From a virus: 64,000 nt of DNA. Positions 31,984 through 64,000 of the stretch are shown one piece after another. Positions within the stretch are counted from its first letter, which is position 1. Each line of letters opens with the position of its first letter. The stretch spans positions 5,577-69,576 of the IMG/VR virus record IMGVR_UViG_3300044714_000124; one strand, 5' to 3'. The notes under the pieces were generated by a model. It worked only from the letters and a program-made list of their open reading frames with translations, searched no databases and was not told where the DNA came from. Both the position numbers and the translations under genes were made by a program.

Positions 31984-31984
31984 A

Positions 31985-32117: not shown

Positions 32118-32159
32118 TGGCTCGCTCGCGGGAGGGCCAAGCAAGTCAGATGATTTGGA

Positions 32160-38809: not shown

Positions 38810-40111
38810 ATGGGTGAAACCAACTGGCGCGGCCCGCTCAATGCGATGGGCTCTCTCGAAGTCGATGCGGGGACGACCGCGTCGATACAGCCGTTCGACG
38901 GGCCGAGCGGGTTCTATCAGGGTATCGTCTACCCCGACATTCGCGGCGCACCGTTTCCGGCCGAGGGCACGGCACCGGGGCGCGCATCCGGGTTTCTCGA
39001 CATTGCGTCGCAGTTCACGATCGATAACAAGCCGCAGGCCAATGCGACGAATGTGATCGCAACGTCGCAGGTTGCGACGACCTCGCTTGCCATTGCGCTC
39101 GTCACGGCCGCGCCGGCCGGGGCCAATGCGGGCTCGCCGCAATTGACGGTCGCCGTGCCGATCATCCCCAGCGGGACGACCGTTGCAACGACTGCGGCGA
39201 TCGCGATCGATTTCGGGTTCACTACGGGCACGACCACGGCCGCGAGTTCGACCGTCGTGGTCTACGACAATACCCAATTCACGTTGGGACAATGGGTGTT
39301 CATCGGCGGTGCGGGTGCCTCGGGAAACACCGCGGGCCTGTTCACCCAGGTGACGGCGATCGCGACCGCGAATTTCACCGGGATCAATGTGTTTCCGCTT
39401 CCGACCGGTTCGCTTGCCAATGCGCCGATCGGACAGGCTGCGCTTTACGGGTCGGGCCTGTTGCCGGCTCAGACGCAATTCGGTCCGGGAGCCGTCACGC
39501 CGGCTGCGATCAATCCGAATGTGCTTGCCGGCCTTTACAAGGTGCATAATCCGAGGGAAGCGATCGCGCGTAATCTATCGGTTACGCTGGTCACCGGGGG
39601 CACCGCGACTTCGGTTGGGTTCCTGGCGCTCGGATGGGATCTGTGGCGCCAGCCGATGAGCGAGCTGATTACCGTTCCGGCGACCACGTCGGCCACGACC
39701 GCATATGGCAAGAAGGCGTTCAAGTTCGTCAGTTCGATCACGCCTCAATCGAATCCGGCCGGCAATTCGTATGCGGTCGGTGTCGGCGACGTGTTCGGTT
39801 TGCCGATTCGTGCCGATGAATGGGAACAGACGCAAATCTATTGGAACGGCTGTCAGGTTCCGACCTCGCTTGGGTTTACCGGTGCGGTCAGCACCACGGG
39901 CTCGCCGGCCACCAACACGACGGGCGACGTGCGAGGGACGATCCAGGTTTCTACGGTCGGGGGCGGTTCGGCCGCCGCTGTTGCGACCGCGCAGGTATCG
40001 AACGGAACGGCCCGGCTGTGCGTTATTCAGAACGCCGGTGTGTGGAATCAGGTATTCGGGACGCCGATCAATACGGTGCCGATGTTCGGGGTGCAGAATT
40101 CTACGAACTAG
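38810..40111 (+). CDS. virion structural protein
   Basis: Thr/Gly-rich; GKKAFK, VGVGDVFGLP, ATNTTGDVRGT. Confidence 0.7.
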   Translation: MGETNWRGPLNAMGSLEVDAGTTASIQPFDGPSGFYQGIVYPDIRGAPFPAEGTAPGRASGFLDIASQFTIDNKPQANATNVIATSQVATTSLAIALVTAAPAGANAGSPQLTVAVPIIPSGTTVATTAAIAIDFGFTTGTTTAASSTVVVYDNTQFTLGQWVFIGGAGASGNTAGLFTQVTAIATANFTGINVFPLPTGSLANAPIGQAALYGSGLLPAQTQFGPGAVTPAAINPNVLAGLYKVHNPREAIARNLSVTLVTGGTATSVGFLALGWDLWRQPMSELITVPATTSATTAYGKKAFKFVSSITPQSNPAGNSYAVGVGDVFGLPIRADEWEQTQIYWNGCQVPTSLGFTGAVSTTGSPATNTTGDVRGTIQVSTVGGGSAAAVATAQVSNGTARLCVIQNAGVWNQVFGTPINTVPMFGVQNSTN

Positions 40112-40137
40112 AGTTGAAAGTTGAGCGAACGAAATGA

Positions 40138-40259
40138 AATCAAATCACGGTTACGTCGATGGATTACACCTATCAACACGGTGCCGATGTTCGGTGTCGT
40201 GCTTCAATGAGGCCGTGACACTTGAGATGTCACGGAAATCGAGTTCCCGTGATTTGATT
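40138..40259 (-). CRISPR. single-spacer unit A with a type I-G-like repeat
   Basis: Minus-strand repeat GATTTCCGTGACATCTCAAGTGTCACGGCCTCATTGAAGC (40240-40201), spacer 40200-40166, flanking inverted repeat AATCAAATCACGG/CCGTGATTTGATT. Confidence 0.8.
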
Positions 40260-40307
40260 ACTGGTGATATAACGTAAGTGTGCTAATGACGCAATAGGAG
40301 GACCGCC

Positions 40308-40679
40308 ATGAAGGGTGGCCATAAAGCGCATCACCACGGGCATAAGAAGGCTGAGGGCGGCCGCACTGAGATGAAGGTTTCGGGGAATCCTGACGTTTTC
40401 AAAGAGACCAAAGGCCCGGAATTCAAGCACGGCGGCCGGGCGAAGAAGCATCGCGCCAATGGCGGCAAGGTCGCAGGGGTGGCCGGTGAGGGCGGCGGCA
40501 AGGTCCTCGGGCTGATGACCGGAGGGGCCGTCAGGCCGCGTTTAGACCGTCCTGGACGCAAGATGGGGGGCCGGGTGGGCGCCGACAAGTCGCCGCTGTC
40601 TACGGCTCACCACGGGCATCCTGACGGGCATGAGACGCCATCGAGCAAGGACAGTTACGGCGGGACGCCTTCGGACTGA
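40308..40679 (+). CDS. basic low-complexity protein with xxGGxV motifs
   Basis: GGAGG RBS; FKHGGRA, RANGGKV, MTGGAV, KMGGRV. Confidence 0.65.
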   Translation: MKGGHKAHHHGHKKAEGGRTEMKVSGNPDVFKETKGPEFKHGGRAKKHRANGGKVAGVAGEGGGKVLGLMTGGAVRPRLDRPGRKMGGRVGADKSPLSTAHHGHPDGHETPSSKDSYGGTPSD

Positions 40680-40685
40680 GCCGTC

Positions 40686-40934
40686 GTGAGCAAGCTTACG
40701 GCAAAGCGGCGGAATGCGTTGCCGGCGAACACCTTCGCTGGTCCCGATAGAAGCTATCCGATTCCAGATGCAAGCCACGCCAGGAACGCGCTTGCCAGGG
40801 CTTCACAGCATGCGGGGGCTGATCTGAAGGCAAAAATACGCGCCAAGGTTCACAAGAAATTTCCGCAAATCCAGATGGCGATGGAGGGCGGGGCGGTCAG
40901 GGCGCGGATGGATCGCCAGAGATGCAAGACATGA
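40686..40934 (+). CDS. small conserved phage protein
   Basis: KLTAKRRNALPANTFAGPDRSYPIPDASHARNALARA. Confidence 0.7.
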   Translation: MSKLTAKRRNALPANTFAGPDRSYPIPDASHARNALARASQHAGADLKAKIRAKVHKKFPQIQMAMEGGAVRARMDRQRCKT

Positions 40935-40938
40935 TTGG

Positions 40939-41040
40939 TGGAGGATTAAACTTGATGCTGCCGCCAGCGAATAGGTTATCACGTTCGGGCTTCAATGAGG
41001 CCGAGGCGTGGATAGCCCCGGAAATCTGTTTAATCCTCCA
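40939..41040 (-). CRISPR. single-spacer unit B with a type I-G-like repeat
   Basis: Minus-strand repeat GATTTCCGGGGCTATCCACGCCTCGGCCTCATTGAAGC (41026-40989), spacer 40988-40954, perfect 13-bp flanking inverted repeat TGGAGGATTAAAC/GTTTAATCCTCCA. Confidence 0.8.
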
Positions 41041-41095
41041 AGCAGGATTGATACACCGACGTTTTCCGTTTGTCTACTGTTGACGCGGAGCGTTC

Positions 41096-41770
41096 ATGCT
41101 GCCGAATGTTATCACTTACTCTTTGATTGCGGCGTCCGCGACAGGTGTGGTCAATGCGGCGCCCATCCAGGGGCCGGGACCTCTCCCGCTTAATTCTCCG
41201 CAGACGCTTGCTCCGACGGGCTCCCTGGTCAATTCGACCACGAATCCGGTCGTACTCGATAATCAGCGGCGGCTGCTGATTACGACCTCGGGCAACGAAA
41301 GCAGCAATAAATTCACCATCGTCGGGCTCAATCAGAACGGCTTCACGACCACGGAAATAATCGTCGGGCCGAGCAGTTCGACGGCGCAATCGCTGCTCGA
41401 TTACAAGACCGTGATTTCCATCACGCCCCTTGCCACCACGGCGGCGACGGTCTCGGTCGGCACTAACGGGGTCGGCGATACGCCTTGGAACATCATCAAT
41501 ACCCACGACACGCCGGTCAATATCGAGGTCTCGACGATCCTGGTCACCGGGGCGGCGACGTGGTCGGTGCAATATACCGATGACGATCCGAACAACCTGC
41601 CTGCCGGCGTGACGGCGCCGCAGGCGTTCAATCATGCGACCATCGTCAATGCGACGGCGACGGTTGACGGGTCGATCACTTCGCCGATCTTCGCGAACCG
41701 GTTGCAGATAACCGGAGGAACGGGAACGATCAGGTTCATATCGCTGCAAGCCGGGATCAGCGGGCCATGA
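41096..41770 (+). CDS. virion structural protein
   Basis: Thr-rich beta-type composition; WSVQYTDDDP. Confidence 0.65.
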   Translation: MLPNVITYSLIAASATGVVNAAPIQGPGPLPLNSPQTLAPTGSLVNSTTNPVVLDNQRRLLITTSGNESSNKFTIVGLNQNGFTTTEIIVGPSSSTAQSLLDYKTVISITPLATTAATVSVGTNGVGDTPWNIINTHDTPVNIEVSTILVTGAATWSVQYTDDDPNNLPAGVTAPQAFNHATIVNATATVDGSITSPIFANRLQITGGTGTIRFISLQAGISGP

Positions 41771-42381
41771 GCGATCCGATGGGCAGTGTGGGGGGTTCCG
41801 CGCGGAAAGCGCCGGGCGATGTGGATATCGCCTTCGAGGGCGGCCCGCCGTTTGCGGCCCGGATCGCCCAATTGAGCACGCTCAAGGAAGCAAACAGCGA
41901 AGCGCTGGCGGAATTGAAGCTCGGGCGCAGCGCGCGAGCGGCTTATGACGAGGCAGCCCGGCTTCATGATCTTGCGGTGTCGGACAGGAATGATGCGGCC
42001 GGGGTTCTCGCCAAGGCAAAAGCGGACGCGGAAAAGCTGCTTGCCGATGCGCGCGATGAGGCGGCGAGCGTTCGGACTGAAGCCGCGAAAGCGGCTGATG
42101 AGATGCGCGCAGAAGCCGCCCGTCAGACAGCCGGCATTGTAGCCGAAATGGGGCGGCAGAAACAGCTTGCCGATGATGACCGCGCGGCGGCAGCGAAGCT
42201 CAAGGGTGATGCGCGGGATGTCTTGCGTGAGGCCGAAGCGAAAGCCGTCGAGGCCGGGAAAGCGAGGGACGAGCAGGAACGGCAGAGTGCCGCCGCGGTG
42301 GCATTGCAGGACGATCTGAAGGGGAAACACGCGAAGCTGCAAGCTGTCCTGCGGGATGTGATCGGCCCCGCGCCGGGGTAA
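41767..42381 (+). CDS. Ala-rich coiled-coil protein
   Basis: Heptad-like A/E/K/R composition. Confidence 0.6.
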   Translation: MSDPMGSVGGSARKAPGDVDIAFEGGPPFAARIAQLSTLKEANSEALAELKLGRSARAAYDEAARLHDLAVSDRNDAAGVLAKAKADAEKLLADARDEAASVRTEAAKAADEMRAEAARQTAGIVAEMGRQKQLADDDRAAAAKLKGDARDVLREAEAKAVEAGKARDEQERQSAAAVALQDDLKGKHAKLQAVLRDVIGPAPG

Positions 42382-42385
42382 TCGC

Positions 42386-42565
42386 GTGGACGCGCAAGGC
42401 AGCAAATCGACACTCGGCGGTGTCCTGTGGACGCTGCCGGCGCCGGCTGCTTATAATTCTCCAGGGATTGCCGGCCAGATTTCCTACGATTCCAACGGAA
42501 ATTTCTATCTGTGCTATGCGTCGAACATGTGGGCATTGTTTGTTGGCCTCTTGGTGTTTCCTTGA
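42386..42565 (+). CDS. short paralog of the following gene (59 aa)
   Basis: MDAQGSKSTLGGVLWTLPAPAAYNSPGIAGQISYDSNGNFYL versus MADAQGSKSTPGGVLWTLPAPAADDSPGRAGQISYDSSGNFYL. Confidence 0.6.
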   Translation: MDAQGSKSTLGGVLWTLPAPAAYNSPGIAGQISYDSNGNFYLCYASNMWALFVGLLVFP

Positions 42566-42580
42566 CTCGGGAGATTTGGC

Positions 42581-42838
42581 GTGGCTGACGCGCAAGGCAG
42601 CAAATCGACACCGGGCGGCGTCCTGTGGACGCTGCCGGCGCCCGCGGCGGACGATTCGCCGGGGCGCGCCGGGCAGATTTCCTATGATTCAAGTGGAAAT
42701 TTCTACCTGGATTATGGGCCGAATATGTGGGCCAAATTTACCGGAACGCTGATATGGCCGGTGCAGCCTTACGTCTTCGACTTTTCTCAGGTTGCGAACA
42801 GTCAATACATTCCGATACTTCTTGGCGGGTTTGCGTGA
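42581..42838 (+). CDS. small structural/fibre-associated protein
   Basis: GGAG RBS; P..PG.AGQI.YD..YL motif. Confidence 0.6.
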   Translation: MADAQGSKSTPGGVLWTLPAPAADDSPGRAGQISYDSSGNFYLDYGPNMWAKFTGTLIWPVQPYVFDFSQVANSQYIPILLGGFA

Positions 42839-42841
42839 TGA

Positions 42842-45217
42842 ATGGCTAGTTATACCTTCTTTACGGTACTCAACTCGGCCGGAGCGACAACCTATTTCGG
42901 CGCCGTCGAGAACGGTACCGGATTATTCAATCAATCGATTCCGACAAATCTATCCGGCACGGCGCTGATCGGTTCGTCTGTAATGGCGAACGCGATACCG
43001 TTTACGCTTGCGACGGATCAGCCGGCTATGCCGGTCAATCTGGCTTCGGTGGGTGGCGTTAGTTTTGGGTTGGGCCAGGCCGTCATGGCGACCTCGCTGC
43101 CGGTCGCCATAGCGTCAAATCAATCCGCAATTCCTGTTACCATTGGTTCGGGGACTTCGCCGATCGGCACGGCGACGGTGCTTCAAGGGACCAATCCCTG
43201 GGTCGTCAATCTCTCGCAAATCAACGGCACGGCGATCAGTATCGGCCAGGGAGTGATGACGGCTTCCGTGCCCGTCGTGATCGCTTCCAATCAAAGCAAT
43301 TTGACGACGGTGCTCGGCGCTGCTCTGCCGGCCGGCACGAACGCTATTGGTACAGTGTCGATCACGGGCGCGTTGCCGGCTGGGACGAATGCGTTAGGAA
43401 CCGTCTCCATAACCGGCGCGCTGCCCGCGGGTACCAACGCCATCGGCACGGCGACGGTCTTGCAGGGCACCGCGCAATGGGCCGTCAATCTCGAACAGGT
43501 TGGCGGTTCGACCTTGGCCTTCGGTCAGGCCGTGATGGCCTCGTCGATTCCGGTTGCGATCGCATCGAACCAATCTGCGATTCCAGTTACCGGCTCGCTC
43601 AGCGCGTCGATCTCCGGTTTTCAGCCTGGCAACAGCTACACGTCGCAAACCTTTAGTACCGCTGCCGGCACCATAGGGTTGCCGACGGGAACGACGGTCA
43701 TCGTCTATAACGTCGGCAGCAATTCGGTCAGTGTGGCGCTCGGGACGACCACGATCTCGGCCGCCACGACCAATGACCAGATTCAGGCCGGTGGGTGGCT
43801 CGCCTATGCGGTTGGTACCGCGACGACGCTGGGCGGCATTACGGCCAACAGCACGACCAAACTCGTGTTGTCCGGCGGTCAGGGCTTGCCTACCGGTGTT
43901 GGTGGGCTCTCCAGCGGCGGGAGCGGCGGTTCCGTTACCCAAGGAACGGTACCGTGGTTGGATAACATCTCGCAGTTCGGCGGCTCTACGGTCGCTCTTG
44001 GTCAGGGGGTGATGGCCTCGTCGATGCCGGTGGTGATCGCGTCGAACCAGAGCAACCTCACGACCGTCCTCGGTGCGGCAATTCCGGCCGGCACGAACGC
44101 CATCGGCACGGTTTCTGTGACCGGCGCGCTTCCTGCGGGCACCAACGCCATCGGTACTGCCACGGTGCTTCAGGGCACTGCGCAATGGGCCGTAAATCTC
44201 GATCAGGTTGGCGGCTCGACTTTGGCCTTCGGCCAGGCCGTCATGGCGACCAGCATTCCGGTCGCGATAGCGTCGAATCAAAGCGCGATTCCCGTCACCA
44301 TCGGTGCCGGCACCAACGTTATCGGCACGGCGACGGTGCTTCAAGGGACCAATCCGTGGGTCGTCAATCTCTCGCAAATTAACGGGACGGCGATCAGTAT
44401 CGGCCAGGCCGTGATGGCGACCTCGCTGCCGGTCGCCATCGCGTCGAATCAAAGCGCGATTCCCGTCACCATCGGGGCCGGCGCGAACGCTATCGGCACG
44501 GTCTCCGTGACCGGGGCGCTGCCGGCCGGCACCAACGCCATCGGAACGGCGACGGTCTTGCAGGGTACCGCGGAATGGGCCAGCAACGTCAATCAGATCG
44601 GCGGCGTGGCGCTCGCCTTCGGCCAGGCCGTCATGGCGACCTCGATCCCGGTCGCCATCGCATCGAATCAGTCCACGCTGCCGATCAACCTCGGGACCGT
44701 GGCCGGCGTCGCCATAGCGACTTCCGGCTTCTCAGGTGGGCTTGCGGTCGGCGGGTTGACGGCCGCCGGCGGGGCTCCCGTCGGCTATCCGCTGTGGCTG
44801 GGAGCGCAGGCACAGACCGGGGAAATCGCGACCTCGGCAACCGGCAAACTCATTCCCCTGGTCGCCGACAAGGTCGGGAAGCAGATCATTCTGCCGCATG
44901 CCAATCCTGAGAATTATACCTCCGGCAAGGCGGCTATCAACACGACGGTGGCGCAGCAAATCATCACCGCTGCCAACGCCACCAACCGGTTCTATATGAC
45001 ATCGATGCAGCTTGGTAACAGTTCGACCGCTGCCACTACGATCCTCGTTAGTTTGAACGATCCTGCGCAATCGCAGTTCATTGTTCCTGGGGGCGGCGGC
45101 AGCAACCTGACTTTTCCTGTTCCGCTGGTGTTCGGGCTGGGCAGCGCTGTCCTGGCGACCTGCGCTGCGGCGGCAGCGACCGTGTATGTCAATGCGCAGG
45201 GCTATGTAGGGACGTGA
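42842..45217 (+). CDS. repetitive fibre-like virion protein
   Basis: Multiple GQAVMATSLPVAIASNQSAIPV and ALPAGTNAIGTV repeats. Confidence 0.75.
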   Translation: MASYTFFTVLNSAGATTYFGAVENGTGLFNQSIPTNLSGTALIGSSVMANAIPFTLATDQPAMPVNLASVGGVSFGLGQAVMATSLPVAIASNQSAIPVTIGSGTSPIGTATVLQGTNPWVVNLSQINGTAISIGQGVMTASVPVVIASNQSNLTTVLGAALPAGTNAIGTVSITGALPAGTNALGTVSITGALPAGTNAIGTATVLQGTAQWAVNLEQVGGSTLAFGQAVMASSIPVAIASNQSAIPVTGSLSASISGFQPGNSYTSQTFSTAAGTIGLPTGTTVIVYNVGSNSVSVALGTTTISAATTNDQIQAGGWLAYAVGTATTLGGITANSTTKLVLSGGQGLPTGVGGLSSGGSGGSVTQGTVPWLDNISQFGGSTVALGQGVMASSMPVVIASNQSNLTTVLGAAIPAGTNAIGTVSVTGALPAGTNAIGTATVLQGTAQWAVNLDQVGGSTLAFGQAVMATSIPVAIASNQSAIPVTIGAGTNVIGTATVLQGTNPWVVNLSQINGTAISIGQAVMATSLPVAIASNQSAIPVTIGAGANAIGTVSVTGALPAGTNAIGTATVLQGTAEWASNVNQIGGVALAFGQAVMATSIPVAIASNQSTLPINLGTVAGVAIATSGFSGGLAVGGLTAAGGAPVGYPLWLGAQAQTGEIATSATGKLIPLVADKVGKQIILPHANPENYTSGKAAINTTVAQQIITAANATNRFYMTSMQLGNSSTAATTILVSLNDPAQSQFIVPGGGGSNLTFPVPLVFGLGSAVLATCAAAAATVYVNAQGYVGT

Positions 45218-45221
45218 AGCG

Positions 45222-45599
45222 ATGCGCTTCACCGGTCATCGGTTTGGTGGCGTGATGGCTTCGATCTATTATTTGGCATCCGGCGAACGGATCGACTGGC
45301 ATCAGCACCCGGTCGCGCATTCTACCGGCGTTAGCGCCGGCCGCTCGCTGGTCGATGTCGGCGATGACGTTTCGCTTGAGATGCGCCCCGGCGATCCTGA
45401 CTACGAGTTACCGCCCAACATCAGGCACCGCGTCACCGCGCTGGAAGACGGCACCATCGTCGTGCACATGATCGAGCGCATTCAATCGGACGACCCGCCG
45501 CCGGTCGGTCCCGACGGCAAGCCGCGCACCCACGGCGGCGTGCTGCTCGATACCGGCGAGATCATCTACGATAATGATAACACAGGAGAACTAATATGA
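45222..45599 (+). CDS. cupin-like protein
   Basis: WHQHPVAH...PPNIRHRVTALEDGT. Confidence 0.6.
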   Translation: MRFTGHRFGGVMASIYYLASGERIDWHQHPVAHSTGVSAGRSLVDVGDDVSLEMRPGDPDYELPPNIRHRVTALEDGTIVVHMIERIQSDDPPPVGPDGKPRTHGGVLLDTGEIIYDNDNTGELI

Positions 45600-45818
45600 G
45601 GATGATTCAGTTTACTCCATACAATATCGCCACTGGAGCGTTGCAGGCTCCAACCGCGCGCTCTGATATCAGAATCGCTCAGATCGGCGAGTTTGGTTAT
45701 CAAGGTCCTAATAATTTTATTCGCGTTCCAGCGACACAACTGATCTTCAGTGACGGATCGACAGCATATTGCCAGGAAGCCATCGCGACTCTAGTGGCGA
45801 ACAGCTAAACAAGTTGCC

Positions 45819-47575: not shown

Positions 47576-47863
47576 ATGATGCCTCCGGGACTTCTGTATT
47601 GCGGCCCGCCGCACTCATTGATGGTGGCTGTTCTGGGAGTTGTCATTCCGGTGCTGTTCGCTGCCGGCGTCCTTGCTTGGGTGATCATCAGGGATGATTC
47701 GAGGATCGTTTGATGAGTCCGCTGTTCCCTGTAGTTCTGCATCATTGCGGCCAGCCGCATTCATTGATGGTGGCTATTCTGGGATTTGTCATTCCGGCGC
47801 TGTTTGAGGCCGGCGTCTATGCTTGGGTGTTGACTAGGAAAGATTAGAGGATCGTTTGATGAG
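47576..47863 (+). repeat. tandem duplicated small single-TM ORFs
   Basis: Two similar copies encoding CGPPHSLMVAVLGVVIPVLF and CGQPHSLMVAILGFVIPALF, each followed by GAGGATCGTTTGATGAG. Confidence 0.7.
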
Positions 47864-48074
47864 CCCGCATGCGATAGGGTGAGGTGACGTCATGCTTTTG
47901 ATTTTGGGGTTACTGGTCGCTGTCGGGACGGTTATTTTTGGTATCATGGCTGTGGCAGCCAACATGGCGACTGATGCGCCGAGTGTACAAAGTACCTCCG
48001 TCACACCGATTTTTGTAATCGGATTTGGCGTGGCTGCGGTGCTGATATTGGTTCATTTTGTAGGGGTGTGAGCC

Positions 48075-50277: not shown

Positions 50278-50281
50278 GCCA

Positions 50282-52594
50282 ATGGCAAGCAGCGGATATC
50301 CGACTGACGGACGGATTACCAGCTTGGCGACCTTCACAGGCGCGCTGGTCGGCAGCGAATTGATTCCGATCGTGTCTCCTGGCAACGCGGCGTCCGGCGT
50401 CAATTACAACATGACGACGCTGAATTTCGCCAACTCGCTGCTGTCGTCGCTGATAAATGCGACGTCGTTTGCCTCGATACAGGTACTCGGTACCGCGACT
50501 TTCAGCGCCGGACCGGTAATCATCAACGGCACGACGCAAAGTTTTCCGTCGAGCGGGGATATCGTTGGCGCGGTCGAAACCGCGACGCTTACCAACAAGA
50601 CGCTCAATTCCGCGATCCTGAACAATCCGGCGTTGAATACCGCGACGTTCAACAATGCTACGATCAACACTGCGATCATCAACAATGCCACGCTCAACAC
50701 GGCAGTTCTCAACAATCCAGTTCTCAACACCGCAATCCTCGGCACCGCGACGCTGAATTCTCCGACCATCGCCTCCGCGACCTTCACCGGCACTCAGACT
50801 TTGCCGGATGGCACTCTTTGGGGCGTGAACGGCATCAGTGCCGCCAACGGCGCGGCGGTGGCGCTTGGAGCGCTGACCTTTGCCGCGGCGGCCTACAATC
50901 TGACCTTGGCGGCAACGGCAACCGCTGGCGCGCTCACGGTCACTGCCAATGCGATAAGTCAAATGGGCGCCACTACTGGCGTCACGCCGAGCGCGGCAAA
51001 TCCCGTGCTCATTGGTTTCCGCTCGAATACCATCTCCTACGGATATCCGACGTTCGAAAGCGTCACCAGTGCGCTGTCGATCACGATCGCGTCCGGCAAC
51101 ACGCTGGGCATGACCAACGGCTCGACGTCGAGGCTGTACGTTGTCGGCATGAACAATGCCGGCAGCGTGGCGCTGGCGCTGTACAATGGGGCGGGGTCGA
51201 GCATCAACGAGGACCTGTTGCAGACGAGCGCCGTGGGCACGGCGGGCGGCAACAGCACCAGCATCTTCTATGCGTCGCAAAGCGGTCTGAGCAATGTAGC
51301 GGTTCGCATCATCGGCTACATGGATATCGCCGAGACAACGGCCGGCGTCTGGGCGAACGGTCCTACCATGCTCAAGCTGTTCGGCGGCAACGAATTGAGC
51401 GCTTCGACAAGTTCGATTTCCACTTCGACCTTCACGACATTGACGGTCCTTGGTACCGCGACTTTCAGTGCGGGGCCGACCACTTTCAACGGTACGACGA
51501 CGCTTAACACGCCGACCATCGCCTCCGCAACTTTCACCGGCACCCAGACTTTGCCGGATGGCAACACCTGGGGTGTAGGCGGCCTTTCCGGCAGCCTGCA
51601 ATCGGGCAGCATCAATGCCGGTTCTCTCAACATCAGCGCTTTGCCCTACGCGCCCGTTAACCTGACATTGGAGGCAACCGTCGCCAACAGCGCGTTGACG
51701 GTCGCGGTGCAGGCGGCTACGTCGAGCGGCACGACAGGCGTGGTTCCGACCGCGGCGAATCCGGTCATCATACCGTTCCGCTCGAACAACATTGGTTTTG
51801 GCTATCCGGCCGTTGAGACGGTTACTGCGGCGCTGTCGATCACGATTGCCTCCGGCCACACCTTGGGCACCATAAGCGGGCAGATGGCGCGACTGTGGAT
51901 CGTCGGCATGAACAACGCCGGGAGCGTCGCCGTGGCGCTCTACAATGCGCTGCAAAGCGCTGCGGTGGGTGGATGGACCATCCAGGGCATCAACGAGGAC
52001 GTTCTCCAATCGAGCGCCAGTGGCACGACGGGCGGCAGCAGTGTGCAGACCTATTACGCCTCGCAAAGCTCGCTGAGCAACGTCGCCGTCCGCATCCTCG
52101 GCTACCTGGAAATCCAGCAGCAGACTGCGGGGACCTGGGCGACTGCGCCGAATATCGTAAGGCTGTTCGGCCCCGGCACGCTCAAGCCCGGCGAGACGGT
52201 GCAGATCGCGTGGACTAATTCAAGCGCCATCACCACGACGGCGCTTACGGCGACCTTCGCCACGGTCGGACCGATCGCGGTCATCAACCCGTTCTCGGCG
52301 GCCAATCTCATCAAGGTCAACACGTTCGGTTCTCTCCAGAACGCCAGCACGCTCGGTGCCGGGACCGACATGATCATCGGCAAGAACGGCACGACGCAGG
52401 TAGGTTATGTCTATCAGACGAATTCCGCCGGCACCGCTTATGCGTCGCCGATAGCGATGGAGGTCTATGATGCGCCGAACTCAACGGCGCTCTTGAGTTA
52501 TGGGGCTTGCGCCAAGATCACGACGGGAATTTTGAGTTATCCCTATAGCAACGTCGGGGCTGCGACGGTTTCCGCAACCGAAATTCAGGTGTAA
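50282..52594 (+). CDS. tail fibre-like protein with an internal duplication
   Basis: TLTNKTL and 5-residue LNTAI repeats; duplicated ANPV.I.FRS...GYP domain. Confidence 0.7.
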   Translation: MASSGYPTDGRITSLATFTGALVGSELIPIVSPGNAASGVNYNMTTLNFANSLLSSLINATSFASIQVLGTATFSAGPVIINGTTQSFPSSGDIVGAVETATLTNKTLNSAILNNPALNTATFNNATINTAIINNATLNTAVLNNPVLNTAILGTATLNSPTIASATFTGTQTLPDGTLWGVNGISAANGAAVALGALTFAAAAYNLTLAATATAGALTVTANAISQMGATTGVTPSAANPVLIGFRSNTISYGYPTFESVTSALSITIASGNTLGMTNGSTSRLYVVGMNNAGSVALALYNGAGSSINEDLLQTSAVGTAGGNSTSIFYASQSGLSNVAVRIIGYMDIAETTAGVWANGPTMLKLFGGNELSASTSSISTSTFTTLTVLGTATFSAGPTTFNGTTTLNTPTIASATFTGTQTLPDGNTWGVGGLSGSLQSGSINAGSLNISALPYAPVNLTLEATVANSALTVAVQAATSSGTTGVVPTAANPVIIPFRSNNIGFGYPAVETVTAALSITIASGHTLGTISGQMARLWIVGMNNAGSVAVALYNALQSAAVGGWTIQGINEDVLQSSASGTTGGSSVQTYYASQSSLSNVAVRILGYLEIQQQTAGTWATAPNIVRLFGPGTLKPGETVQIAWTNSSAITTTALTATFATVGPIAVINPFSAANLIKVNTFGSLQNASTLGAGTDMIIGKNGTTQVGYVYQTNSAGTAYASPIAMEVYDAPNSTALLSYGACAKITTGILSYPYSNVGAATVSATEIQV

Positions 52595-52597
52595 CGC

Positions 52598-53323
52598 ATG
52601 CTCAGTTACGCCACCTTCGTCACGTCGCTCGCGAACCTGCTGGTGGTGCCGGCGGGTGACGCAGGCTTCCAGACGGTTCTGCCGAACATCATCGACGACG
52701 CCGAGCAGCGCATCTATCGCGATTTGGATTTTCTCACCACTTTGGCTCAGACCACGACAGCCCTGACGGCGATGAACAGGGAATTTTCAGCGCCGCAGGT
52801 CAACTCCAACGGGCTCAACGTTCCCTATGTGGTGATCGAAGAGGTCAACGTCATCACGCCCGCATCCGTGACGAATCCCAATCTGGGCTCGCGCAATCAG
52901 TTGGTGCCGACCAGCAAGGAAGTCCTCAACTTGACGTGGCCCAGTTCGAGCGGAGCGACGGTCCCCGAATATTATGCCATGGTGGGGCAGACCAGCATTC
53001 TGCTCGGGCCGTGGCCTGATCAAGCCTATACGGTCGAAGTCGTCGGCACCTACCGGCCGGCGCCCATGTCGCCGAGCAATCAGTTTACCTTCATCAGTCT
53101 GAATCTGCCTGATCTGCTGCTTGCCGCGGCGATGGTGTTCGGTAATGGGTACCTGAAAAACTTCGGCTCCGTGGTTGACGATCCGAAAGCGGCAGTTACG
53201 TGGGAAAGTCATTATCAGACTCTCAAGCAGAGCGCCGAGGTCGAGGAAGCCCGCAAGAAGTTCACCGCGGCCGGATGGTCTACCAAACAGCCATCGCCGA
53301 TCGTGACGCCGCCGAGGATGTGA
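52598..53323 (+). CDS. phage adaptor/tail protein
   Basis: IIDDAEQRIYRDL...PEYYA...GPWPDQAYTVE...PDLLLAAAM. Confidence 0.7.
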   Translation: MLSYATFVTSLANLLVVPAGDAGFQTVLPNIIDDAEQRIYRDLDFLTTLAQTTTALTAMNREFSAPQVNSNGLNVPYVVIEEVNVITPASVTNPNLGSRNQLVPTSKEVLNLTWPSSSGATVPEYYAMVGQTSILLGPWPDQAYTVEVVGTYRPAPMSPSNQFTFISLNLPDLLLAAAMVFGNGYLKNFGSVVDDPKAAVTWESHYQTLKQSAEVEEARKKFTAAGWSTKQPSPIVTPPRM

Positions 53324-53324
53324 T

Positions 53325-54299
53325 ATGGCCGAACCGACGACCAATAATAAGGGTCTGATCGTTCCTAATACCGGCGACCTGGTCGGCGCATGGGGCACGA
53401 CCGCCGTCAACGCCGATTTCAACGCCATCGACGGCATGCTCGGCGGTGTTCTCAATCTTTCGCTTTCCGCTGCGACCAGTTTCAATCTGACAGCGCCGTC
53501 CGCCACCATCACGCCGAGTTCCGGCCCGACGCAATCGCAGAACATGGCGATTCACCTGTCGGGAACGCTTACCGGAAATGTGCAGATAGGCTTCACGCTT
53601 CCCGGCATCTATCTCGTGGACAATTCCTGCATCACGGGAGCCTATTACGTCCAGTTGATGAATTCCGGGGGCCTTGGCGCGGGCTCCTATGTCGGGTGCC
53701 CTCCCGGCTTCCCGATCTTCGTCTATTACGACGGGACGAATGTGAGGCTCGTCAACGCGCCCCCTGTCGGGAGTTATCTCGACCTCGCAGTGACGACGTC
53801 GCCGCTGTGGATGACGGCTTCTTCGTTCGTGCCATATCTGCCTTGTAATGGCTCGACCTATAATACCAGCGCCTATCCGCAGCTCGGCAACCTGCTGGGT
53901 TCGACCTTCGGCGGCAACGGCATCACGACGTTCGCGGTGCCCGACCTCTCGAACCGCTTCCGCATTCCTCTCGATCTGACGGGGAGCAACCGCGTTACGG
54001 CGGGCGGTGCCGGAATCAGCGGGACGACGCTTGGCGCTGCGGGGGGCGATCAGAGTCTCCAGGCACACACCCATGCCGCCGTGGCGACGGTGACCGATCC
54101 GGGGCACTCGCACACCGATATCGCTATCCTGGCGGGCACCGTGCTCGGCGCTCAAAATGGCTTTCAGGTTACGCCCAGCACGACCGGCGTGTCTGTGACC
54201 AACATCAGCGTCGCGGTCGCCAACGCCACGACCGGCGTGGGGGGCGGGCAGAACATGCCGCCCTCGATGGTGGCGGGGATATGTTTCATCAAGACGTGA
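53325..54299 (+). CDS. tail collar domain protein
   Basis: YLPCNG...YPQL..LLG.TFGGNG.TTFAVPDL. Confidence 0.85.
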   Translation: MAEPTTNNKGLIVPNTGDLVGAWGTTAVNADFNAIDGMLGGVLNLSLSAATSFNLTAPSATITPSSGPTQSQNMAIHLSGTLTGNVQIGFTLPGIYLVDNSCITGAYYVQLMNSGGLGAGSYVGCPPGFPIFVYYDGTNVRLVNAPPVGSYLDLAVTTSPLWMTASSFVPYLPCNGSTYNTSAYPQLGNLLGSTFGGNGITTFAVPDLSNRFRIPLDLTGSNRVTAGGAGISGTTLGAAGGDQSLQAHTHAAVATVTDPGHSHTDIAILAGTVLGAQNGFQVTPSTTGVSVTNISVAVANATTGVGGGQNMPPSMVAGICFIKT

Positions 54300-54305
54300 G
54301 AGGCG

Positions 54306-54827
54306 ATGGTGTGGTGCGTTTCCCATCGTGCCGATCCTGCTGCGGCTAGATTAGCTGATAGGCACTACAACCGGCAGAAGATTGGGACGCCTCAATTTGC
54401 GCCCACAGGTTCATGTTGCGTGTTCGTTACCGATTGCGGCCGGGCTTTCTGGATTACGTCATATCCGCTTGCAGAATGGGTAAAACATGCGTGGGGCGGC
54501 GCGTGGATATGCAGCGCCTTTCGTTCAGAAGGCGCTGGGTGCGCGTCTGAATTGATCCGTCAGGCGGTTGGTGCAACCCGTGCGCATTACGGCGAACCGC
54601 CGGCTATGGGAATGGTGACGTTCATCGATCGGCGCAAGGTGAGACCCATAAAAGTGCGATCGCGCGATGTTTGGGGGTGGACATGGCGCAAGGCTGGATT
54701 TGTGGAGGACGGCGAAACCAAGGGTGGCCTTCTGGTGATGCGATTGCATGTGTGCGACATGCCAAACGCTTTGCCGGCCGCGCCTCGCACGATGCGCGGC
54801 TCTCCGCTGTTTGATTGGATTGCGTGA
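54306..54827 (+). CDS. hypothetical protein, possibly Mom-like/GNAT DNA-modification fold
   Basis: LADRHYNRQ...CSAFRSEG..ASELIRQA...AGFVEDGETKGG; weak resemblance only. Confidence 0.35.
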   Translation: MVWCVSHRADPAAARLADRHYNRQKIGTPQFAPTGSCCVFVTDCGRAFWITSYPLAEWVKHAWGGAWICSAFRSEGAGCASELIRQAVGATRAHYGEPPAMGMVTFIDRRKVRPIKVRSRDVWGWTWRKAGFVEDGETKGGLLVMRLHVCDMPNALPAAPRTMRGSPLFDWIA

Positions 54828-56878
54828 TGCCATTCGGAGAAATTAAGCTCGTCCCCGGCGTCAATGTCGAGCGCACTCCGACATTGCTGCAAGCCTCGAT
54901 CTCGTCCGGCAACCTCATCCGCTTCAAAGACGGTCTCGTCCAGAAGCTCGGCGGCTGGCAGTCTTATTACCCTTTCAGCGTGCCGGGCATGCCGCGCGAT
55001 CTGCACGCCTGGGAAGACCTCGATCAGGTCACTCATCTCGGCGTCGGCACCACGACCGCGCTTGGCGTCATCACGAACAACAATTACCAGGACATCACGC
55101 CGCAGACCCTGACGACGAACTTTCCGCCGAATTTCACCACTACCAGCGGCTCGCCGATCGTCACCGTGACTGATACGAACATCAATAACGTCACGATCTA
55201 CGACGCGGTTTATTTCAACACGCCGGTGAGCGTTGACGGGATCATCCTCTCCGGCCTGTATGCGATCAGCGAAGTGACCGGGGCGGATTCCTACGATATC
55301 GTCGCCGCGACCAATGGCGTGAGCGGCGTGACCTCGCAAGGCACCGTTCCGGCGTTCACCACGACGTCGGGGAGTGCGCTCGTCGCGGTCGAGCTTGCCT
55401 CCCATGGGCTTGTGGCGGGCAGCACGATCAATTTCCCGATCGGCACGACTGGAAACGGGGTGACGGTGCTTGGCACCTATCCCGTGGTCACGCTTATCGA
55501 TGCCAACAATTTCAAGATCGGAGCGAGCAATCAGGCGAGCGCGTCCGGCTCCTTCAACGTGAACGCGGCGAACACGCAGCTTGTCTATTACATCTCGCTG
55601 GGGCCGCCGGCGCTGGGGGCCGGCTACGGGCTCGGCGGTTACGGCGCAGGCGGCTACGGCACCGGGACGACGTCGGGCAACACTCAGACCGGGACGGAGA
55701 TCACGGCAACCGACTGGACGTCGGACAATTGGGGCGAAATCCTTCTTGCCGTGCCGGCCGGCGGCGGTGTCTATGCCTTCGACCCGACTTCGGGCTTCGT
55801 CAATGCGCAGCTCGTCGCGACTGCGCCGATCTTCAACGGCGGCGGATTCGTCTCGGCCAGCCTGCAAATCCTGGTGCTGTGGGGCTCGACGGTTGCGGAG
55901 GATATCGGCGTCACGCAGGACCCGTTGTTCATTCAATGGTCGAATGAAGGGGACTACACGGACTTCGTGGACCTGACGACGAACCTTGCCGGCAACGACC
56001 GGCTGTCGTCAGGCTCGAAGATCATGGGAGGGCTCGCGGTCCAGCAACAGAACCTGATCTGGACCGATATCGACCTGTGGGCGATGAATTACATCGGCGC
56101 CCCTCTGGTGTTTTCCTTCAACATCATCGGTGCCGGTGCGGGACTGATTTCATCACATGCGGCTCAGGCGGTCCGTGGGAACGTCTACTGGATGGGGCCT
56201 TCCAATTTCTACGCCTATACCAGCAACGGCGTGGCGGTGCTGCCTTGTCCGGTGTGGGATGCCGTGTTCCAGAATCTCAATACGGCCTATCAGCAGAACG
56301 TCCGGGCGATGCCGAATACGCCCTTCAACGAGGTAGGGTGGCTCTATCCCTCGGCGGCGAGCGTCTCGGGGGAATGCGATTCGTACGTCAAGTTCAACAT
56401 CACCGAATCCGGCGCGCCTTGGGATAACGGCGTGTGGCCGCTCGCGGGGCGCTCGGCCTGGATCGACCAGACCATCCTGGGGCCGCCGATCGGCGCCACT
56501 CCGGGCGGGGTGATCTACCAGCACGAAAGGACGCCCGACGCCGCCGGGGCGGCGATGGTCTCGACATTCACCACGGGATATTTCTACATCGGCGAGGGCG
56601 AGGATTTCTGCTTCGTCGATCAGATTTATCCCGATTTCATTTGGGAAACATATGCCGGGACGTACATTGCTCAAGGGTCGATGAGCTTCAATGTGACGAA
56701 CTATCCAGGCGACACGCCGACTGTGTACGGGCCTTACACGGTGACCAAATCGACGGAATATTTATCGGTGCGGTTGCGTGGGCGGCAAATGTCCATTACC
56801 GTGACGTTCCAGGATGTGGGGAGCTTCTATAGGCTGGGCAAGGTGCGGTACCGGTATAACCCGGACGGGAGGCGGTGA
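54827..56878 (+). CDS. tail nozzle / DNA stabilization protein (tail tubular B-like)
   Basis: LVPGVN.E.T...IRF.DGLVQKLGGW, IQWS, VYWMG..NFY.Y, LPCPVWD.VF, RLRGRQ...RLG..R....DGRR. Confidence 0.75.
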   Translation: MPFGEIKLVPGVNVERTPTLLQASISSGNLIRFKDGLVQKLGGWQSYYPFSVPGMPRDLHAWEDLDQVTHLGVGTTTALGVITNNNYQDITPQTLTTNFPPNFTTTSGSPIVTVTDTNINNVTIYDAVYFNTPVSVDGIILSGLYAISEVTGADSYDIVAATNGVSGVTSQGTVPAFTTTSGSALVAVELASHGLVAGSTINFPIGTTGNGVTVLGTYPVVTLIDANNFKIGASNQASASGSFNVNAANTQLVYYISLGPPALGAGYGLGGYGAGGYGTGTTSGNTQTGTEITATDWTSDNWGEILLAVPAGGGVYAFDPTSGFVNAQLVATAPIFNGGGFVSASLQILVLWGSTVAEDIGVTQDPLFIQWSNEGDYTDFVDLTTNLAGNDRLSSGSKIMGGLAVQQQNLIWTDIDLWAMNYIGAPLVFSFNIIGAGAGLISSHAAQAVRGNVYWMGPSNFYAYTSNGVAVLPCPVWDAVFQNLNTAYQQNVRAMPNTPFNEVGWLYPSAASVSGECDSYVKFNITESGAPWDNGVWPLAGRSAWIDQTILGPPIGATPGGVIYQHERTPDAAGAAMVSTFTTGYFYIGEGEDFCFVDQIYPDFIWETYAGTYIAQGSMSFNVTNYPGDTPTVYGPYTVTKSTEYLSVRLRGRQMSITVTFQDVGSFYRLGKVRYRYNPDGRR

Positions 56879-57322
56879 TGGATCAGGCTGAAAAAATCGA
56901 TCGCATCATGGGGCAGCTTCGGCAGATGAAGGCGATGCTGTGTAAGACAGTATTTAGTGGTCAGTCGTACGATACGAGCGATCACGAATACGAAGAATTT
57001 CATGAGGCATGGAATGATATTTACGACGCCGTCAGCGGACTGCTGCCATCGGAGAGCCTTGGATTGGCGAAGGAGCGGCGGTGATGAATGATCATGGTAT
57101 GCAGGAACAATCGGCGCCGCTGAAACAGCTTGCGGCAAAACCTCTATTGGATCGCTTGAAGGAATACAGTAAATCTGATGTTGAGGGTGTGCTTCGCGGC
57201 CTTGTGGTAACCGGTGAAATGGCAGATTACGATGATGAAATGGTTAATCGAGTGAGGGATGCCGCTGATCTGTGTGTCGCCGTGCGCGAGTTGCTGAGGC
57301 AATGGCCGTGATTGAAAATTGA

Positions 57323-57646
57323 ATGGCCTCCGCCGACGATATCAACTCGACCCTGCAGGGCATCAGCCGCAACATCGCCAATTGGGTGACGGCGTTCAAC
57401 GGAAGGCTGATCGCGGGCTCCGTGACCCTCGGCAACGCTACCGTGACCGTGGTAGCTCAACCGGGGGTGACGGGGGATTCCGTCATTTTCACGATGGCAA
57501 CCAACGCGGCGGCGGCGTTGACGCAACGCACGAATGGGCTGTATGTTTCCGCGTTGACGGCGGGCTCCGGTTTTTCGCTGGCGACGCAATCCGGGTCGGC
57601 CAGCGGCAGCGAAACCTTCGATTATATCTTGTTCAATCCGAGTTGA
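57323..57646 (+). CDS. hypothetical virion protein
   Basis: 107-aa ORF with structural-type composition. Confidence 0.55.
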   Translation: MASADDINSTLQGISRNIANWVTAFNGRLIAGSVTLGNATVTVVAQPGVTGDSVIFTMATNAAAALTQRTNGLYVSALTAGSGFSLATQSGSASGSETFDYILFNPS

Positions 57647-57649
57647 AAA

Positions 57650-57760
57650 CCGCTGATAGGACTGCCGTTCATGTCGGCCTCATTGAAGCGTGCGAAACGA
57701 GGCCCGTGGGATGATGCGTGGGCCGATATTTTCCGACGTGAACGGCAGCCTTATCAGCGG
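57650..57760 (+). CRISPR. single-spacer unit C with a split type I-G-like repeat
   Basis: CGGCCTCATTGAAGC ends at 57689; spacer about 57690-57725; then ATATTTTCCG; arms 57650-57677 and 57733-57760 form a 28-bp stem. Confidence 0.75.
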
Positions 57761-57780
57761 CTCGACAATATGGGTGAATG

Positions 57781-58467
57781 ATGCCTCTTTTGCATTCCTC
57801 TTCTCCGGGTGCCTTCCGGGCCAACGTCAAGACGTTGATGAGCGAGGTTGGCAAAAGTCCTCACGTGGGATCACGGGATCAAGCATTAGCTATCGCATAC
57901 GAGCTTAAGCGCCGCTCCAAACATGCCTTCGGCGGAGCGCCCGCGCCGTGGTTTGTCAGGCAAGAATCCCGCGGGATGATGCGCGGCCCTATTCTCTCCG
58001 CGGTTGCCGGGCGAACCGATCATCATCCGATGTCCGTCGCCAGCGGATCGTATGTGTTGCCGGCGGACCATATGAGCCACCTCGGCCAGGGCAATTCGCT
58101 TTCGGGCGCCAACGTCGTCAACCGCATGTTCCGCATGGGGCCTTATGGCGGCGCAGCGCCCTCGATCAAGCACGGCATGGGCGCGCCGAAACCTCCGAAG
58201 ATGCAGGGCGTCATGGGGGCCTCGGGGGGCGCCATGGATGCCGGCGGGGCGCGTGGCAGTCATGGCGCGCCGGGTGCGCCGGTCCCCATCATGGCGGCGG
58301 GCGGCGAGTTCGTCGTACCGCCGGAAAAGCTCTTGGAATTCCTCCATCGCAACGGCCTGCCAGCGAACCTCAAATACGGTCACGCCATGATGGATGAATG
58401 GGTGAAATCGACGCGGCAGAAGCACATCAAGACGCTGAAAAAATTACCGGGGCCTGCGAAATCATGA
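57781..58467 (+). CDS. conserved phage protein (GRTD...GEFVV family)
   Basis: QALAIAY, GPI.S.VAGRTDH.PM.V.SGSYVLPAD, AAGGEFVVPPE. Confidence 0.7.
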   Translation: MPLLHSSSPGAFRANVKTLMSEVGKSPHVGSRDQALAIAYELKRRSKHAFGGAPAPWFVRQESRGMMRGPILSAVAGRTDHHPMSVASGSYVLPADHMSHLGQGNSLSGANVVNRMFRMGPYGGAAPSIKHGMGAPKPPKMQGVMGASGGAMDAGGARGSHGAPGAPVPIMAAGGEFVVPPEKLLEFLHRNGLPANLKYGHAMMDEWVKSTRQKHIKTLKKLPGPAKS

Positions 58468-63961: not shown

Positions 63962-63997
63962 GGGTGAATACCCGGCTCGCCGGGAAGGCAGCGAGAT
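63962..63997 (+). CRISPR. repeat of the array 1 family at the window end (possibly the start of a fourth array)
   Basis: CCCGGCTCGCCGGGAAGGCAGCGAGAT with a degenerate 5' end, immediately after the TGA at 63959-63961. Confidence 0.8.
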
Positions 63998-64000
63998 GGT

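Follow-up and report, generated by a model that had tools for sequence, protein, structure and literature searches.

CRISPR mini-arrays that are not accompanied by cas genes have been described in SPV1 and SPV2, in which the spacers target each other's genomes and the orthologous sites of the carrier are mutated (Medvedeva et al. 2019, PMC6858448). The spacers of phage mini-arrays are reported to target adjacent genes of closely related viruses and not of the carrier (Faure et al. 2019 as cited in PMC6858448); this picture is repeated in reviews, and the proximity of the arrays to their targets is stated to be unexplained (PMC6858448). Here we describe three intergenic units, each made of a single repeat and a spacer-like tail, in a 64-kb stretch of DNA (the window) that corresponds to bases 5577-69576 of the 69,576-nt IMG/VR virus record IMGVR_UViG_3300044714_000124. 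The record has direct terminal repeats and is rated complete, and the carrier is a soil phage. We consider it rather probable that the units are cas-less single-repeat type I-G guides that depend on the host, are directed against the alleles of sister phages and are tightly linked to the resistant alleles of the carrier.

The units resemble the mini-arrays of SPV1/SPV2 and of phages in the absence of cas genes, in repeats of a host type, in the low number of spacers (1-2) and in the location of the targets near the array. As in SPV1/SPV2, the spacers appear to be directed against close relatives and the orthologous site of the carrier is mutated; here the fit to the targets consists of peptides and 21 nt of DNA. 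Unlike the SPV1/SPV2 mini-arrays, our units are of type I-G and belong to a soil phage, they have one repeat instead of two and no recognisable leader, and every one of them is closed by a long-range stem of 12-27 bp. The RNA anti-CRISPRs (Racr; Camara-Wilpert et al. 2023, PMC10651486) are likewise solitary, cas-less intergenic repeats of viral genomes that mimic host repeats. Racr, however, need no meaningful spacer, whereas the tails of our units are homologous to neighbouring genes and fit the alleles of a relative. The main text of that paper holds 0 mentions of type I-G, and its supplements may list I-G units. A compact repeat with a short guide is also characteristic of Cracr (10.1101/2024.10.29.618823), which on phages reprogram host Cas proteins, and of crlRNA/CreA. 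The viral RNAs similar to CRISPR RNA (crRNA) silence host cas or toxin promoters (10.1101/2024.10.29.618823); in contrast to Cracr and crlRNA/CreA with such targets, the guides described here match genes of the phage structural region, and fit the relatives' alleles better than the own ones.

Canonical I-G arrays (RF01330) share with the units the TTTCCG 5' part, the 7-bp hairpin, the 12-nt tail ending in ATTGAAGC and the spacer of ~36 nt. The units differ from them in not forming an array, in lacking both a cas operon beside them and a repeat downstream, in the presence of three different stems in one genome and, in unit 3, in a long-range pairing that takes the place of the local hairpin. 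The position beside the recognition site, the patchy occurrence among relatives and the donor-like tract are reminiscent of homing endonuclease genes and CRISPR homing drives, and, as in homing elements, the carrier allele would by our analysis be resistant and the empty allele sensitive. Unlike homing endonuclease genes, the units encode no nuclease, and the cutting would rely wholly on the host Cascade-Cas3; unlike homing endonucleases, Cas3 degrades DNA processively and does not make one break, and no conversion event was observed here.

Since mini-arrays directed against adjacent genes of related viruses have already been published, the core idea is not new. New are the I-G subtype and the single-repeat unit closed by a long-range stem; the three units per genome, each tied to its own protospacer, which are present here and absent in close relatives; and the confinement of the divergence to the stretch between unit and protospacer, with the PAM (protospacer adjacent motif) side facing the unit in 3/3 cases. 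In the literature listings and passages searched, no published proposal of homing for viral mini-arrays was found.

Repeats and architecture of the units

The 15-nt motif CGGCCTCATTGAAGC is present in the window in exactly 3 copies, at 40201-40215 (-), 40989-41003 (-) and 57675-57689 (+). Shuffling gives an expectation of 0.18 copies, and the observed count was reached in 0/100 shuffles, so the three intergenic units with a common repeat end that the first-pass annotation had noticed are not in doubt. There is no fourth exact copy across the whole 69,576-nt record. A match with two mismatches at 61098 lies inside a gene, has no upstream hairpin recognisable by eye and is treated as chance, and none of the other ATTGAAGC or ATTGAAAC sites in the record has a repeat context.

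The units are arranged as follows.

Unit 1, 40138..40259, minus strand: 5' arm 40259-40247; repeat 40240-40201; spacer 40200-40165; linker; 3' arm 40150-40138.
Unit 2, 40939..41040, minus strand: 5' arm 41040-41028; repeat 41026-40989; spacer 40988-40953; 3' arm 40951-40939.
Unit 3, 57642..57766, plus strand: degenerate repeat 57660-57689; spacer 57690-57725; 3' arm ~57733-57766.

In all three units the copies of CGGCCTCATTGAAGC form the 3' ends of matches to the Rfam family RF01330 (CRISPR-DR16). The match in unit 2 (37.5 bits) is above the gathering score of 35, and that in unit 1 (30.7 bits, E 7e-5 in a 1.5-kb search) is below it. The hairpins of units 1 and 2 have stems of 7-9 bp which are unlike in sequence and nevertheless both pair, and they are followed by CCTCATTGAAGC; a 7-bp hairpin with a 12-nt tail ending in an 8-nt handle is therefore present. 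Unit 3 has only a 3-bp local stem, and its long-range stem ends at the equivalent place. It was demonstrated for type I-G that Csb2 cuts 4 nt 3' of the 7-bp hairpin, leaving an 8-nt handle, and that it stays on the 3' hairpin of the crRNA (10.1101/2022.08.08.503147).

An exact scan for CGGCCTCATTGAAGC in 185,579 species genomes yielded at least 120 stretches. Among the matches listed, at least 34 array rows in other genomes carry the motif with periods of 71-75 nt, their repeats reading ...TTTCCG, a variable 7-bp stem-loop and then CGGCCTCATTGAAGC; they originate from Acidobacteriota, Gemmatimonadota, Alpha-, Gamma- and Deltaproteobacteria and other groups. In 4/4 loci tested (L017, L055, L099, L049) such arrays are adjoined by I-G cas genes, and 9/10 open reading frames (ORFs) flanking these four arrays are Csb1/Cas7g, Csb2, Cas3g with an extension or Cas4g/Cas1g. 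Judged by sequence, the repeats of the units are of type I-G, as had been proposed. Six-frame searches of the phage record detected 0/4 I-G cas families, in agreement with the units being cas-less; the blanks for Csb1 and Csb2 are weaker evidence, as these two models, which worked on the array-flanking ORFs, gave no match in control genomes either.

A long-range inverted repeat encloses each of the three units. In units 1 and 2 the arms are perfect over 13 bp, and among the perfect inverted repeats of the window whose arms are 11 nt or longer and whose gaps span 40-140 nt, these two units account for 2/8. In unit 3 the repeat's 5' half (57650-57677) serves as the 5' arm, and the closing stem comprises 27 pairs in two main helices, G-U pairs included. 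The folds are stable relative to expectation in unit 1 (-50 kcal/mol, z -4.98), unit 2 (z -3.92) and unit 3 (-68.6 kcal/mol, z -8.25). The arm sequences of the three units are mutually unrelated, which argues that they do not belong to one terminal-repeat family. The automated detector of closing stems was too noisy for other loci, and the statements on stems are based on the inverted-repeat count and the folds. The G-U pairs stabilise the guide orientation by ~6-7 kcal/mol in unit 3 (+ strand) and in L249, a unit of an unrelated virus described below; in units 1 and 2 they give no strand signal, and unit 2 folds better antisense. No second RF01330 match follows the spacer up to E = 10 in either unit region, so the units are not mini-arrays with two repeats. 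By eye, a repeat-like 5' half can be seen after the spacer of unit 3, and units 1 and 2 are without one.

Spacers, adjacent genes and their alleles in relatives

For each of the 36-nt stretches located 3' of the repeats, the best ungapped match in the whole window adjoins the unit itself. The cognate sites and the genes in which they lie are listed below.

Gene A, 38810..40111, plus strand: conserved virion-region protein; likely start ATG 38810, the ORF opening at 38768.
Cognate 1, 40060-40095, minus strand: last codons of gene A; 28/36 nt; gap 69 nt; 5' flank TTC at 40096-40098.
Gene C, 41096..41770, plus strand: 224 aa, no function assigned; 72 homologues.
Cognate 2, 41102-41137, plus strand: gene C codons 3-14; 23/36 nt; gap 113 nt; 5' flank CTG at 41099-41101.
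Gene D, 57778..58467, plus strand: 229 aa, phrog_2423 on the N-terminus, no function assigned; 721 homologues.
Cognate 3, 57955-57990, plus strand: gene D residues 60-71; 25/36 nt; gap 229 nt; 5' flank TTT at 57952-57954.

The nucleotide scores alone are unexceptional, as the best matches of random 36-mers average 22.5 with a maximum of 28. The chance of such proximity of the cognate is ~0.009 per unit. The spacing agrees with the distance of about 70-230 bp between guide and cognate given previously; of the identities given previously, 25/36 was reproduced, and a count over 36 nt turns 28/35 and 23/35 into 28/36 and 23/36.

It is this position, together with the coding pattern of the spacers, that makes the case. 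Spacer 1, read antisense, encodes TPINTVPMFGV, which coincides with the end of gene A in 11/11 residues. The peptide of spacer 2, PNVITYSLAAAS, compares with PNVITYSLIAAS at codons 3-14 of gene C (11/12 residues), and that of spacer 3, VRNEARGMMRGP, with VRQESRGMMRGP at gene D residues 60-71 (10/12 residues). The mismatches fall on third codon positions in 5/5, 10/13 and 8/11 cases for spacers 1, 2 and 3, with permutation p values for the coding pattern of 3.5e-4, <5e-5 and <5e-5, respectively. The peptide identity together with the third-position mismatches points, for each spacer, to descent from a neighbouring-gene homologue that had diverged under purifying selection, and the earlier description of the spacers as recoded homologues of adjacent genes is thereby upheld.

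The likeness between unit 3 and gene D extends 21 nt beyond the spacer (57726-57746 vs 57991-58011, 12/21, background P ~0.006); 57726-57746 encodes IFSDVNG against ILSAVAG in gene D, resembles by eye the 5' half of a second repeat and also forms the 3' arm of the stem. In gene A, residues 442-443 (40090-40095), at the PAM-proximal end of protospacer 1, are highly variable among the homologues (VQ, NA, VA, VT, VV and others), and the C-terminus around them is otherwise conserved.

The mismatches to the carrier's own alleles are at positions 1, 2, 3, 6, 24, 30, 33 and 36 of spacer 1, at 6, 9, 12, 15, 18, 21, 22, 25, 26, 27, 30, 33 and 36 of spacer 2, and at 3, 4, 6, 7, 9, 12, 13, 18, 30, 33 and 36 of spacer 3. 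These positions imply a broken seed for units 1 and 3 and an intact one for unit 2, where positions 1-8 match the own allele except for 6; there the flank is the non-TTN triplet CTG, with 8 effective mismatches. The PAM of type I-G is TTN (10.1101/2022.08.08.503147), as the first-pass annotation had it, and its TTC, CTG and TTT 5' of the cognates were re-read identically. TT occupies the two 5' flank positions in 2/3 own cognates (TT frequency 0.048, p 0.007), and in 3/4 when L249 is included (p 4e-4).

The polarity is constant, the repeat end being followed by the copy regardless of the strand of the gene, and the copy in unit 2 is inverted relative to gene C. A simple duplication of the flank upon insertion was considered and rejected, as the copies in unit 2 and L249 are inverted and each copy abuts the repeat end with the same polarity. 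The template repeat of a diversity-generating retroelement was rejected by eye: the differences also involve bases other than adenine, and the copies are only 36 nt long. The proteins scanned, which cover part of the ORFs, give no sign of a reverse transcriptase that such an element would involve.

Relatives of the phage were sought in IMG/VR, in metagenome contigs of the Joint Genome Institute (JGI), in a 5.8-billion-protein collection and in soil-metagenome runs. No close relative at the DNA level was found in IMG/VR or the JGI metagenome contigs. The search with gene A gave no IMG/VR relative and one distant match in metagenome contigs, and that with gene D gave 10 loci at 33-50% identity with no spacer match above 25/36. 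At the protein level, gene A has 412 homologues at E<=1e-10, of which the top one is 95% identical and has the N-terminus MGETNW; no Pfam or PHROG family was matched by gene A. The closest protein to that of gene C, P0005 (81% identical), begins MLPNVITYSLAAAS, and the closest to that of gene D, P0076 (93% identical), reads ...FVRNEARGMMRGP...; each of them lists a longest contig of 68,606 nt. The peptides of spacers 2 and 3 fit these two proteins of a close relative in 12/12 residues each, against 11/12 and 10/12 for the carrier's own proteins. The gene A homologue P0196 (95%) ends in ...PMFGNANSTN, the own protein in ...PMFGVQNSTN, and spacer 1 implies ...PMFGVV. As the seed codons differ (GNANSTN vs GVV), P0196 is not the target of spacer 1. 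Gene A alleles ending in GVVNST are present in the more distant homologues P0214, P0220 and P0237.

Of the words sampled from a 10-kb stretch, 13-16% recur in five soil-metagenome runs that belong to two other studies. The contigs of three of these runs (X2-X4) and of the probable source run were aligned to 39900-58100 at a likeness of at least 80%, and only the best-supported differences were considered. All three units are skipped in the relatives' contigs, at the following joints.

40089->40323, runs X2 and X3: 233 nt skipped, 45 other letters; unit 1 absent.
40915->41096, run X3: 180 nt skipped, 28 other letters; unit 2 absent.
57646->57907, runs X2 and X4: 260 nt skipped, 139 other letters; unit 3 absent.

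The genes of the carrier next to these joints, all on the plus strand, are the following.

Gene B, 40308-40679: 123 aa, His/Gly/Lys-rich, between units 1 and 2.
82-aa ORF, 40686-40934: phrog_16160, between units 1 and 2.
107-aa gene, 57323..57646: from the ORF list, directly upstream of unit 3.

The flanks of the skipped stretches are 93-98% identical, with 2 differences in 39982-40089 and 9-12 in 40323-40681. The 45 and 28 replacement letters cannot hold a 100-nt unit, and units 1 and 2 are therefore absent from these relatives. The 139 letters at the third joint are filled by the diverged first 43 codons of gene D, so that ~10 nt are left and there is no room for unit 3; the relatives' contigs align through the 107-aa gene to 57646 and then skip the unit. 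The relatives have gene B and the 82-aa ORF as well, and these genes are hence not cargo of the units. An element that is present in this phage and absent in close relatives at the equivalent site beside the cognate was thus found, as expected from the suggestion that relatives lack the units.

The end of an X2 contig contains the last 21 nt of protospacer 2, which match spacer 2 in 18/21 positions, compared with 12/21 for the own allele. The mismatches of the X2 relative are at spacer positions 21, 30 and 36. In type I effectors every sixth crRNA position is not presented for pairing by the Cas7 backbone (10.1101/2022.08.08.503147), so two of these three mismatches, 30 and 36, fall where no pairing takes place. 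The prediction that relatives match the spacers better than the carrier does is supported by the 12/12 peptides of spacers 2 and 3 and by these 18/21 nt, and it was not borne out for spacer 1, for which no target was found, or in respect of a perfect protospacer.

The divergence from relatives is concentrated in the stretch that reaches from each unit to the distal end of its protospacer. In gene D compared with P0076, 16/17 residue differences lie in residues 1-64 and one in 65-229; in gene C compared with P0005, residues 11, 15 and 17 differ and the next difference is at residue 81; and gene A of the X3 relative is 98% identical up to 40089, where the alignment breaks inside the 6 PAM-proximal nucleotides of the protospacer. 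In 3/3 window units the cognate turns its PAM side toward the unit (p 0.125, not significant), the orientation in L249 being opposite. Given that Cas3 travels 3' to 5' on the non-target strand (10.1101/2022.08.08.503147), this geometry means that Cas3 loaded at a relative's site would run toward the empty insertion site. Such islands would be expected from the import of the unit and the resistant allele as one tract, and also from selection on that tract alone. Together with the Cas3 geometry they fit homing or gene drive without proving it.

Possible action of the units and alternative explanations

In the mechanism we propose for a host that has a type I-G system, its Csb2 would process each transcript by a cut 4 nt 3' of the repeat hairpin, leaving an 8-nt handle and a spacer of ~36 nt, and the host Cascade-Cas3 would be aimed at the sister phages' allele of the neighbouring gene. 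The own alleles may escape owing to the seed mismatches in units 1 and 3 and to the non-TTN flank with 8 effective mismatches in unit 2. The guide and the immune allele, lying 70-230 nt apart, would move as one linked block; this linkage would guard against suicidal recombinants, and repair of a cut relative from the carrier genome could put the block in place of the sensitive allele. Transcription, processing, interference and any drive are steps that we infer from the DNA sequence.

A more far-reaching combination, in which the units are nuclease-free homing blocks and, at the same time, the closing stem makes a two-piece crRNA out of one repeat, seems to us possible and rather doubtful. In the homing part, Cas3 would run from the PAM side toward the empty site, and repair from the carrier would copy the unit and the immune allele. 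In the crRNA part, the hairpin fragment with bound Csb2 would stay paired to the 3' end of the guide after the cut, and the paired upstream fragment would substitute for the 3' repeat hairpin needed by the I-G Cascade. Because Csb2 stays on the 3' hairpin and no downstream repeat is present, the stem may be predicted to tether the cleaved hairpin to the 3' end of the guide.

Similar units were looked for in IMG/VR: 19 stretches there have the motif CGGCCTCATTGAAGC 10-24 nt after a TCCG, and the variant with a GAAAC ending gave 4. Outside the window, 12 loci with 7-bp hairpins were tested for cognates; the duplicates L179 and L245, the hairpinless L162, L173 and L234, L196 with its short tail and, at the peptide level, the array L163 were left out. 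One of the loci, L249:5205-5325 on a 7,931-nt contig of an unrelated virus, combines an I-G repeat, a recoded inverted spacer copy and a closing stem. The peptide of its spacer, IQALASAGTRI, has its counterpart, VQALASAGTSI, close to the end of the adjacent 112-aa ORF (24/36 nt, 9/11 residues); the cognate is 91 nt away, inverted and flanked by TTT, and the 12-bp closing stem includes two G-U pairs. In 10/12 loci, all but L249 and L150, no cognate was present in the nearby DNA covered; 0/4 GAAAC-ending loci had a cognate, and 0/12 solitary or end-of-array units in bacterial loci had one nearby. A two-repeat I-G mini-array is located at the end of an 8-kb viral contig (L150:7902-8019); its spacer matches the own contig in 36/36 nt, 2 kb off (~5950), with a TTG flank, which may be true self-targeting or an assembly chimera. 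On a 47-kb IMG/VR contig (L176:688-1423) two I-G-type units lie on one strand at a spacing of 721 nt, similar to the 788 nt that separate units 1 and 2 of our phage, and the 2.8 kb examined contained no cognate.

A number of observations weigh against the guide function we favour. No nucleotide-perfect protospacer was found for any spacer, the fits consisting of peptides and 21 nt of DNA, and back-translated patterns of the three spacer peptides gave 0 stretches in IMG/VR. For spacer 1 no target was found among the gene A relatives, and according to the difference counts the X3 relative keeps at least 2 of 4 PAM-distal mismatches to this spacer. The X4 relative has 9 differences in 57907-58100 against the 11 mismatches of the own allele, so its match to spacer 3 cannot exceed 34/36. 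The repeat of unit 3 is weak (RF01330 22.2 bits, E 0.018, below the gathering score of 35). Csb2 has no 3' hairpin to stay on when the only repeat lies upstream, which makes the assembly of the effector uncertain. The fold energy favours the guide orientation in only 2/4 units (the three of the window and L249), and a scan for promoter consensus found none on the minus strand near units 1 and 2, where weak -35/-10 candidates can be seen by eye. An adjacent recoded cognate is present in only 1/12 IMG/VR loci (L249). The first-pass annotation proposed to look for a host with I-G repeats; none of 730 spacers taken from I-G arrays matched the phage over more than 17 nt, and a host was not found. 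A tblastn search with gene A against the phage collection gave no match, so there are no isolate relatives there. The overall interpretation put forward at the outset therefore stands as far as the repeat type, the absence of cas genes, the recoded spacers and the relatives without units are concerned, and falls short in the perfect protospacer and the target of spacer 1.

The same features might be explained without any guiding. Solitary phage repeat units act as decoys for type I-F and other systems (PMC10651486), and our units, being single-repeat and cas-less, could as RNA anti-CRISPRs absorb the host Csb2 and Cas7 and blunt I-G immunity, their spacer-like tails being relics. We regard this as improbable in the pure form: a decoy needs no spacer, and the peptide-exact fit to the relative's alleles would be left unexplained, as would the TTN flanks, the 3/3 adjacency and the islands that end at the protospacers. 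A decoy role may, however, coexist with guiding. Somewhat less credible still is that the units are passive pieces of a host I-G array, caught by homology-assisted or illegitimate recombination and kept neutrally with no function. A recombinational origin of phage mini-arrays has been discussed (PMC6858448, PMC7099407), and recombination between spacer and protospacer would indeed put array pieces close to the cognate. Nevertheless, the genes here are intact, and the copies sit 69-229 nt off in narrow gaps between genes; the copies of unit 2 and L249 have the opposite orientation to their cognates; each of three differing units has a clean closing stem of its own; and the repeat hairpins keep pairing despite their unlike sequences. 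These features argue for selection and not for relics.

It is very hard to believe, finally, that the host Cascade, guided by crRNA-like RNAs with partial matches, occupies the own genes A, C and D of the phage and leaves them uncut, as in regulation by crlRNA/CreA. Regulatory crRNA-like RNAs with partial complementarity are known in hosts and phages (10.1101/2023.03.03.530964, 10.1101/2024.10.29.618823), and spacer 2 has positions 1-5 and 7-8 in common with the own allele, at the beginning of gene C. The own-allele seed, however, is mismatched at 1-3 in unit 1 and at 3, 4 and 7 in unit 3, the own flank in unit 2 is CTG and not TTN, and the relative's alleles fit the spacers better than the own alleles do.

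Other features of the window and significance of the units

The window has a G+C content of 60%, and its plus strand carries almost all called genes. A separate CRISPR system that is the phage's own occupies 2999-8127. A 455-aa protein with a helix-turn-helix domain of the IS605 OrfB type (TnpB/Cas12-like; 2999-4366) adjoins two arrays with 36-nt repeats, at 4778-5800 (14 copies) and 7634-8127 (7 copies); the arrays have two spacers in common, and a lysozyme gene lies between them. The spacers of this system have no adjacent cognates. Copies of its repeat are also found outside the arrays, solitary or paired, at 31967-32123 and 63971-63999: one pair lies between a radical S-adenosylmethionine (SAM)/SPASM gene and a gene of a thiamine pyrophosphate (TPP) enzyme, and one copy lies in the terminal repeat and occurs again at genome position 98. 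A 791-aa gene at 42842-45217 is built of internal repeats of 42-48 nt and 135-224 nt with a recurring ALPAGTNAIGT-like motif, and probably encodes a fibre or decoration protein; the relatives' contigs show joints and rearrangements in this region. The block 27666-33947 is metabolic-looking and includes a cytidylyltransferase-PfkB fusion, the radical SAM/SPASM protein and the TPP-dependent enzyme.

With three units, relatives that lack them, the tracts and the Cas3 geometry, this locus has the pieces needed to test why the targets of mini-arrays adjoin the arrays. Homing, if it does take place, would explain both the proximity of the targets and the islands of divergence. If the stem-closed design is functional, it would show how one repeat can drive a type I system whose processing subunit stays on the 3' hairpin, and it would be a very compact guide format. 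If either the linkage or the homing holds true, the units would be natural RNA-guided selfish blocks that spread by means of a host nuclease, with a bearing on the mosaicism and speciation of phages.

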